Source of the DNA: a phage
Length of the DNA stretch: 1,283 nt
Direction: 5' to 3' (one strand)
Sequence record: OR846100.1
A model generated the notes under the pieces. That model saw only the letters and a list, made by a program, of their open reading frames with translations. It did not search any database and was not told the origin of the DNA. Made by a program: the position numbers and the translations under genes. Shown piece by piece: positions 1 to 1,283 of the stretch. Within the stretch, counting starts at the first letter, position 1. Each line of letters starts with the position of its first letter.

Positions 1-492
1 CGTCTGAGTTTTTCCAGTGCGGCGCGTAACTATAACGGCACCTACAGCGCCCAGCGGCAGGAGTTGGTCGAGTCCACGGATGGTTACCTGATCCTGCAGG
101 ACTGTTTTATTGGCGCGGTAACCCGCCCGGTGTACCGGACATGGCTGAATATGGTGGTTGCGGCAGGTCTGCTGAAAATTCCGGCGGATGTGGAGATGAA
201 AACGCTATATAACGCGACGTATTCCGGTCCGGTGATGCCGTGGATCGACCCGGTTAAGGAAGCTGAAGCCTGGAGAATTCAGATCCGGGGTGGTGCAGCG
301 ACAGAATCTGACTGGGTGCGTGCTGGTGGGCGCAATCCGGATGAGGTCAAACGTCGCCGCAAGGCTGAAATTGATGAAAACAGCAGACTGGGGCTGGTCT
401 TTGATACTGACCCCGTCAACGACAAAGGAGGCAACAGTGCCGGAACTGAACGACAGTATCAGCGCGACACCGAAAGCCAGCATGAAGAATAA
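1..492 (+). CDS. Phage portal protein, C-terminal portion (5'-truncated; gene continues upstream of the window)
   Basis: Frame 1 is open from base 1 with no stop until TAA at 490-492, so the TTG at 64 used by the ORF track is not the real start. Translation reads RLSFSSAARNYNGTYSAQRQELVESTDGYLILQDCFIGAVTRPVYRTWLNMVVAAGLL...KRRRKAEIDENSRLGLVFDTDPVNDKGGNSAGTERQYQRDTESQHEE, with an acidic/charged C-terminal tail. The portal assignment is by synteny only (gene immediately upstream of and overlapping the prohead protease); I cannot confirm the family by motif from memory. Confidence 0.6.
   Translation, partial: RLSFSSAARNYNGTYSAQRQELVESTDGYLILQDCFIGAVTRPVYRTWLNMVVAAGLLKIPADVEMKTLYNATYSGPVMPWIDPVKEAEAWRIQIRGGAATESDWVRAGGRNPDEVKRRRKAEIDENSRLGLVFDTDPVNDKGGNSAGTERQYQRDTESQHEE
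424..431 (+). promoter_or_regulatory. Shine-Dalgarno sequence (AAAGGAGG) for the protease gene, embedded in the 3' end of the upstream gene
   Basis: Near-consensus AAAGGAGG at 424-431; the AGGAGG core ends 5 nt before the in-frame GTG at 437-439. It lies inside the upstream ORF, consistent with translational coupling of adjacent phage morphogenesis genes. Confidence 0.55.
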
Positions 493-1283
493 ATCCTGGT
501 TCAGGATGCAGGCTGGGGGGCCGGGTGACGCGGATATTTATATTTATGACGAGATTGGTTTCTGGGGAGTTACCGCGAAGCAGTTTGTCAGCGAACTGAA
601 TGCACTGGGTGATATCACCCACATTAATCTCCATATCAATTCACCGGGTGGCGATGTCTTTGAAGGCATCGCCATTTTTAATGCCCTGAAAAATCAGGGG
701 GCGACCATTACCGTGTATGTGGATGGCGTTGCCGCCTCGATGGCATCTGTGATTGCGATGGCCGGTGATACGGTCATTATGCCGGAAAATGCCTTCATGA
801 TGATCCATAAGCCATGGGGATTCAGTGGCGGGGATGCTGAGGATATGCGCAGTTATGCCGATTTGCTGGATAAAGTCGAATCGGTACTGTTGCCAGCCTA
901 TGCGCAGAAAACCGGAAAAACCACCGATGAAATTGCCGCCATGCTGGCGGATGAAACCTGGATGTCCGGTGCCGAATGTCTGGCACACGGATTTGCTGAC
1001 CAGGTGACACCCGCTGTTGAGGCAATGGCATGTATTCAGTCAAAACGTACAGAGGAATTTAAAAAGATGCCGGAATCCATCCGAAACATGATTACTCCGC
1101 CACGCAACAGTGCCCCGCGTGATACCACAGTGACAATCCCTGCACCGGCGGTAACAGAACCATCACCGGTACCGGCAGTGTCTGATGAGGCGACCATTCG
1201 CGCCCGCGTTATGGCAGAACAGAAAGCCCGCATGTCAGGCATTAACGATCTGTTTGCCATGTTCGGTGGTCGCTATCAGACGC
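437..1283 (+). CDS. ClpP-like (S14-type) phage prohead maturation protease, possibly the N-terminal part of a protease-scaffold/capsid fusion protein (3'-truncated at window end)
   Basis: Frame 2 is open from 236 to the window end. Start is GTG 437 (preceded by AAAGGAGG at 424-431 with a 5-nt spacer) or ATG 482 (MKNKSWFRMQAGGPGDADIYIYDEIGFWG...). ClpP-type motifs are present: INSPGGDVFEGIAIFNAL (about 635-690), catalytic Ser in GVAASMASVIAMAGD (Ser codon TCG 737-739), His in MMIHKPWG (CAT 806-808), and Asp in LADETWMSGAECLAHGFAD (GAT 950-952), which aligns with E. coli ClpP ...RDRFLSAPEAVEYGLVD. Ser-His spacing is 23 residues, similar to ClpP. After about 1000 the ORF continues into a Pro-rich linker (TIPAPAVTEPSPVPAV) and a charged segment (ATIRARVMAEQKARMSGINDLF) with no stop. 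Confidence 0.88.
   Translation, partial: MPELNDSISATPKASMKNKSWFRMQAGGPGDADIYIYDEIGFWGVTAKQFVSELNALGDITHINLHINSPGGDVFEGIAIFNALKNQGATITVYVDGVAASMASVIAMAGDTVIMPENAFMMIHKPWGFSGGDAEDMRSYADLLDKVESVLLPAYAQKTGKTTDEIAAMLADETWMSGAECLAHGFADQVTPAVEAMACIQSKRTEEFKKMPESIRNMITPPRNSAPRDTTVTIPAPAVTEPSPVPAVSDEATIRARVMAEQKARMSGINDLFAMFGGRYQT

Follow-up and report, generated by a model that had tools for sequence, protein, structure and literature searches.

The stretch of DNA analyzed here (1,283 nucleotides of phage sequence record OR846100.1; hereafter, the window) matches prophages of E. coli O157:H7, and many O157:H7 chromosomes, at 100% identity. Of 5426 complete E. coli genomes, 2065 contain related sequence, some in as many as six copies, and it is also present in Stx-converting phages, phage 1720a-02, VT1-Sakai, mEp460, and others. 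The window contains the 3' end of a portal gene and, overlapping it, the beginning of a long open reading frame (ORF). The following features were identified:

1..492, plus strand: 3' end of a lambda-family portal gene (stop TAA at 490-492), overlapping the start of the fusion gene
424..439, plus strand: Shine-Dalgarno (SD) sequence AAAGGAGG (424-431), 5-nt spacer, and GTG (437-439)
437..1283, plus strand: protease-scaffold-major capsid fusion ORF, first 282 of 674 codons, open to the window end
572..1009, plus strand: ClpP-like (MEROPS S14) prohead protease domain, residues 46-191 (PF00574 CLP_protease, E 1.7e-36)
737-739 and 806-808, plus strand: candidate catalytic Ser101 (TCG) and His124 (CAT), both invariant in alignments A1 and A2
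1052..1056, plus strand: SD-like GAGGA (core AGGA at 1053-1056, 10 nt upstream of the ATG at 1067)
1067..1069, plus strand: in-frame ATG (Met211), proposed start of a 464-residue scaffold-capsid product
1067..1186, plus strand: Pro/Thr/Ala-rich segment, residues 211-250, predicted to be disordered (pLDDT 48-64) and poorly conserved
1187..1283, plus strand: start of a helical scaffold-like (delta-domain-like) region, comprising helix 251-274 and the beginning of helix 281-289

The full portal gene matches Pfam PF05136 (Phage_portal_2, E 1.6e-80) and is annotated as a phage portal protein. RefSeq/PGAP places the start of the gene that follows at ATG 482-484, which gives 659 codons, whereas a start at GTG 437 gives 674; the long product probably begins at the latter. 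mEp460 (GTG), Gifsy-2 (ATG), and F10 (ATG) each have an SD-preceded start at the corresponding place, and the Gifsy-2 gene is annotated from it. The ribosome-binding site of GTG 437 (AAAGGAGG) is also much stronger than that of ATG 482. Relative to the RefSeq product, the N-terminus is probably 15 residues longer, and the overlap with the portal gene then amounts to 56 nt. Within the window, an Rfam scan returned no family at E ≤ 1, a repeat scan gave nothing meaningful, there was no promoter-like excess, and small ORFs in the other frames contained nothing pointing to genes.

The portion of the fusion ORF that lies in the window (437-1283) is the 5' 42% of the gene. The initial annotation had described an ORF that continues past a ClpP-like domain, through a Pro/Thr-rich low-complexity linker and a charged, helix-like segment, and off the window, and each of these elements was recovered. 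There is no stop among the 282 codons from 437 to 1283; the linker PPRNSAPRDTTVTIPAPAVTEPSPVPAVSDE is found exactly, at residues 221-251 (nt 1097-1189), and is followed by the charged segment ATIRARVMAEQKARMSGINDLFAMFGG, likewise exact, at residues 252-278 (nt 1190-1270). Both calls fit the AlphaFold2 model, in which residues 211-250 are disordered (pLDDT below 65) and residues 251-274 form a confident helix (pLDDT 94-98). As the protease ends at approximately residue 191 (nt 1009), the ORF extends approx. 90 codons beyond it within the window.

The protease assignment is based on several matches. In addition to PF00574, the NCBIfam model Clp_rel_HeadMat covers residues 32-190, and solved ClpP structures match the protease part by sequence (best E 2.9e-18). 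Residue D172, expected to be the third member of the ClpP triad, is replaced by K in Gifsy-2 and by E in F10 and is therefore not conserved there; its neighbor E173 (residues 172-174, window 950-958) is invariant. The enzyme may thus use a Ser-His dyad, or the acidic residue may be shifted.

Beyond the protease, the low-complexity segment 211-250 is the most variable stretch in the relatives (alignments A1 and A2); it would tie the protease to the scaffold and would form the N-terminal tail of a short product. Residues D250, E251, I254, R255, and A256, at the start of the helical region, are nearly invariant. The helical scaffold-like region comprises approx. 130 residues, from 251 to about 380. 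AlphaFold2 predicts helices at 251-274, 281-289, 295-308, 328-341, 357-367, 377-386, and 392-410, of which five, predicted with confidence (251-274 to 357-367), precede the Pfam capsid domain at 384, as is characteristic of a delta domain; the rest of the 211-674 model is a core of strands and a spine helix. This model, built on an alignment of 137 diverse representatives, has a mean pLDDT of 91.2, and a model of the full-length protein based on 62 close homologues (74-99% identical) reached a mean of only 41. The loop at 309-327, which is of low confidence in the model and carries indels, is a candidate cleavage region only; a stretch at about 370-385 is a second candidate for the maturation cut.

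The downstream part of the gene, traced in NC_013008.1, adds 392 codons and ends at a stop equivalent to window position 2459-2461. In the same frame, Pfam Phage_capsid_4 is matched at residues 384-671 (E 9.8e-56), with a weak Mu-like_gpT match as well, so that the C-terminal HK97-fold major capsid domain lies within one uninterrupted ORF. The capsid part belongs to the Phage_capsid_4 / Mu gpT-like family, which has the HK97 fold. The only solved structures that match it by sequence are those of Mu (9jod, E 2.3e-5) and JBD30 (8rkc, E 2.4e-3), both weakly; these Mu gpT-type capsid proteins are stand-alone chains of approx. 300 residues, without a protease or a long scaffold region in the chain. 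Over the whole protein, NCBIfam NF045540, named 'ClpP-like prohead protease/major capsid protein fusion protein', reaches 1004 bits, where 475 is the cutoff, and aligns with residues 32-672 of 674, and a PHROG 133 match runs end to end. The RefSeq product of the O157:H7 prophage gene is named likewise. These results bear out the earlier suggestions that the ORF encodes a protease-scaffold or protease-major capsid fusion, that its unseen downstream part encodes the capsid shell, and that a fusion would total several hundred residues (674 codons were found). The arrangement that was to count against a fusion, an early stop followed by a separate scaffold or capsid gene, is absent: no stop occurs before 2459-2461 and no such gene is present.

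The gene order is consistent with this assignment. In the E. coli prophage, the upstream neighbors are genes for the large terminase, a small protein, and the portal, and the downstream neighbors are a gene for a Phage_cement_2 decoration protein (PF09956, E 6.6e-19) and then lambda-like tail genes. The order terminase, portal, fusion, cement protein, tail genes is common to E. coli, Gifsy-2, mEp460, and Pseudomonas phage F10, and in none of these four does a separate scaffold or capsid gene lie between the portal and tail genes. Past the fusion stop, between the capsid and decoration genes, locus L001 contains a GC stem followed by a T run (GCCC-GAAA-GGGC, 8470-8506). A rho-independent terminator is annotated at the equivalent place in the mEp460 record; a simple terminator scan did not call the stem.

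The architecture is widespread. A full-length copy is present in 74 phage records, among them those of the plaque-forming phages mEp460, F10, and LLS, and 82 full-length loci, spread over the Gammaproteobacteria and 47-78% identical, were collected from Enterobacterales, Pseudomonas, Pasteurellaceae, Shewanella, Psychromonas, and others. A search of 1.84 billion cluster representatives, made without a profile, returned 11,037 relatives of the scaffold-capsid part; among the best 149 of these, 117 are at least 600 residues long. In the sampled fusions, the Phage_capsid_4 scaffold-capsid module is preceded by a ClpP S14, an HK97-type S78, or a lambda-type S49 protease (proteins P0143, P0210, P0261, and others; locus L094 2346-4400). 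For the S78 and S49 fusions, scans of viral contigs by single proteins gave only three loci, and annotated phage records were used instead. The protease partner is thus interchangeable, and the presence of three protease families before one capsid family implies repeated protease replacement or repeated fusion. In Faecalibacterium phage FP_Epona, a distant relative, the protease and scaffold-capsid genes are separate, in the same order, and 13 nt apart. A different junction is seen in P0121 (751 aa), in which a portal N-terminus (PF05136, 35-184) is joined to the C-terminal half of ClpP and the capsid domain, presumably by a deletion in a decaying prophage.

The closest characterized system is that of Salmonella phage Gifsy-2. 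Effantin et al. 2010 (Virology 402:355) are reported to have described a 'tripartite capsid gene' in this phage, of which reportedly only the C-terminal domain is left in T=7 mature capsids decorated by trimers. The trimeric Gifsy-2 decoration (cement) protein sits at the 3-fold axes (PMC8538268). The initial annotation had noted such fusions as a known architecture in enterobacterial prophages, and the Gifsy-2 gene (NC_010393.1 22471-24561) is indeed 60% identical over the full length (residues 1-673). The two share the order of ClpP protease, central region, and capsid domain, with a lambda-family portal gene upstream and a small decoration protein gene downstream. They differ in the sequence and length of the tether; in Gifsy-2, moreover, the 309-327 loop is longer by a 7-residue insertion and position 172 is K. 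Full-length homology, the position between portal and decoration genes, and the lack of a separate capsid or scaffold gene all place the E. coli gene in the Gifsy-2 type.

Other head gene arrangements resemble this one in part. In HK97, the protease gp4 belongs to family S78 and is encoded by a separate gene, and the shell is a covalent chainmail. The scaffold region described here is comparable to the HK97 delta domain fused before the capsid protein (gp5); in contrast to HK97, an S14 ClpP-like protease lies in the capsid ORF and a decoration protein gene is present. With the lambda C/Nu3/E/D genes, the locus shares a lambda-family portal, an N-terminal protease joined to a C-terminal scaffold, and a decoration protein, but the lambda protease is of family S49 rather than S14, and the lambda capsid protein E is encoded by a separate gene, whereas here the capsid domain forms part of the fusion ORF. 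The E. coli gene may work like C/Nu3, yet it is not a member of that arrangement. Taken together, positions 437-1283 of the window very probably belong to one late gene, 674 codons long, in a lambdoid O157:H7 prophage; this gene encodes protease, tether, scaffold, and capsid and is an orthologue of the Gifsy-2 gene. The NF045540 match, the homology to Gifsy-2, and the lack of a separate capsid gene mean that this architecture is already known and already annotated; the addition made here is a proposed internal start.

In particular, Met211 lies after the protease domain and before the low-complexity segment, and no other in-frame ATG of the E. coli gene has an SD-like motif before it. The methionine is kept in 81 of the 82 loci, and an AGGA or GGAG core is always located 9-11 nt upstream of its ATG, while the residues encoded by the core vary (EE, ED, QE, KD, KE, GD, MEN). 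For statistics, a set of 57 sequences less than 90% identical to each other was used, 56 of which carry the Met. All 56 of these non-redundant relatives have an SD-like 4-mer upstream of Met211, and the same element occurs in 0-13% at 16 other conserved Met columns and in 5% as background over all codons. The most specific signal is at codon 206 (E, K, or Q), which ends in G in 52 of 52 sequences, with 21.4 expected from the codon usage of each gene; after thinning to less than 70% identity, the figure is 17 of 17 (8.2 expected). A third position conserved to at least 93% is found in only 12 of the 674 codons, 11 of them Met or Trp codons; codon 206, whose first position is just 70% conserved, is thus the sole degenerate codon to reach this level. 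The SD is conserved at the nucleotide level despite varying residues; together with the nearly universal ATG (81 of 82 loci), this suggests an in-frame nested start that would give a 464-residue scaffold-capsid product. It should be kept in mind that a distance of 10 nt from AGGA to ATG is near the upper limit of what is usual and that the conserved SD-like motif partly overlaps conserved residues (E/D-F). RNA around the proposed internal start shows no excess of structure over shuffled sequence (z = +1.3). In the literature searched, outside which the original Gifsy-2 report lies, no internal start was described for this gene and no paper mentioned STM1033.

The junction signal is not confined to the S14 fusions. 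Five other fusions have an SD-like element with an ATG where the protease meets the tether or the tether meets the scaffold: four S78-type fusions, in the Pseudoalteromonas B8b, Pseudomonas LPPA33, Ralstonia YO023_3, and Bordetella PBb002 phages, and one on a divergent IMG/VR contig. Its recurrence in unrelated S78 fusions suggests that nesting could be a general rule for this capsid family. As in lambda C/Nu3-type genes, the sequence signal of an in-frame internal start with its own ribosome-binding site is found at the protease/scaffold boundary; such a start is experimentally established in lambda, and Met211 would be its counterpart here. Internal in-frame starts at the protease/scaffold boundary also characterize HFTV1 gp17/gp17.5 and HSV-1 UL26/UL26.5, which yield an abundant short form and a rare long form (bioRxiv 10.64898/2026.09.13.751334). 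In these viruses, the capsid protein lies outside the nested ORF, and the internal start has been shown by ribosome profiling and proteomics. The proposed nested start in the fusion gene would probably have been kept from an ancestral separate gene.

Apparent natural copies of the short product were considered and rejected. Stand-alone scaffold-capsid proteins of 461-471 residues that begin at approximately Met211 (P0007, P0048, P0134, P0148) all lie 16-103 nt from a contig end and are therefore assembly artefacts. Short-read assemblies often break approx. 16 nt upstream of Met211 (position 17 in L087-L090, 36 in L091, and 104 in L092), which yields many entries of 461-464 residues that resemble stand-alone capsid genes (P0048, P0007); a possible reason is a repeat boundary between prophage copies at the variable tether. 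P0128 was likewise dismissed as a case of separate protease and capsid genes: the copy is frameshifted, and the peptide upstream of the ATG can be read in the downstream frame. In this frameshifted copy (L086, GCA_000755365.1, 2411-4386), which sits in an apparently degraded prophage, the protease frame is closed by a stop at 3014-3016; a scaffold-capsid ORF then opens at the ATG equivalent to Met211, and AAGGA lies 10 nt before this ATG.

Two alternatives to a long fusion ORF can be given very little credence. One is a protease-scaffold ORF of the lambda C/Nu3 type that ends soon after the window and is followed by a separate capsid gene. Several older phage records do label the gene 'protease/scaffold protein' or 'scaffolding protein'; however, no stop occurs until 2459-2461, the capsid domain is in frame, and there is no other capsid gene, which makes this reading extremely improbable. 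An IS629 insertion has truncated the gene in VT1-Sakai, hence its short 'scaffolding protein'. In that prophage (AP000400.1, L002, 7357-8666), the gene is split at a point equivalent to 74 nt past the window end, and the two parts bear the names 'scaffolding protein' and 'hypothetical protein'; the only capsid gene of this Stx1 prophage is therefore broken. Such disrupted copies, including the frameshifted GCA_000755365.1, could be taken to mean that the long ORF is an artefact, created by a sequencing or assembly frameshift or by a decaying pseudogene that merges two genes. The gene is, however, intact in 2044 complete E. coli genomes, 74 phage records, and 82 loci of many genera, and a curated NCBIfam model covers the fusion, so that an artefact is just as hard to credit.

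A more serious question is whether the internal signal is used. It is conceivable, if rather doubtful, that only the 674-residue polyprotein is made, so that each capsid subunit carries a protease, and that the SD and ATG are a relic of fusion or a pause site. The ORF is uninterrupted in all 82 loci, the citing literature calls the gene simply a fusion, and the unfused arrangement of FP_Epona offers a possible origin for a relic. A relic, however, would not be expected to keep G at the third position of codon 206 in 52 of 52 sequences, at more than twice the expected count, while the residue itself shifts among E, K, Q, G, and M in lineages down to 47% protein identity; the junction signal also recurs in fusions to the unrelated protease family S78. 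We therefore lean towards a nested gene, in which the SD and ATG at 1052-1069 would direct synthesis of a 464-residue bulk subunit and a full-length minority would carry the protease. For protease-scaffold-capsid fusions in general, the balance tips only slightly in favor of such nesting, with the 464-residue protein as the main subunit and the rare full-length form bringing in the protease covalently and so setting the protease-to-capsid ratio.

Head assembly can be pictured by analogy with HK97, lambda, and Gifsy-2. Starting from the portal, the capsid domains would assemble into a shell that holds the scaffold and protease parts inside. If the gene is nested, most subunits would start at Met211 and, as in lambda C/Nu3, the procapsid would receive its protease from a minority. 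We infer that the Ser101/His124 protease would then cut off everything N-terminal of approximately residue 310-385. The shell would expand upon DNA packaging and would be cemented by the Phage_cement_2 decoration protein encoded by the next gene.

The fusion itself is textbook-level knowledge for specialists and is named in RefSeq, so its confirmation merely validates the inference of the initial annotation. Many phage records, nevertheless, label the gene only 'Clp protease', 'scaffold protein', or 'head maturation protease', and such labels hide the sole major capsid gene of the phage, including in Stx-converting phages. If the internal start is real, it would explain how a capsid of approx. 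415 shell subunits avoids packing 415 proteases, and it would extend the nested logic of lambda C/Nu3 and herpesvirus UL26/UL26.5 to a three-part gene.
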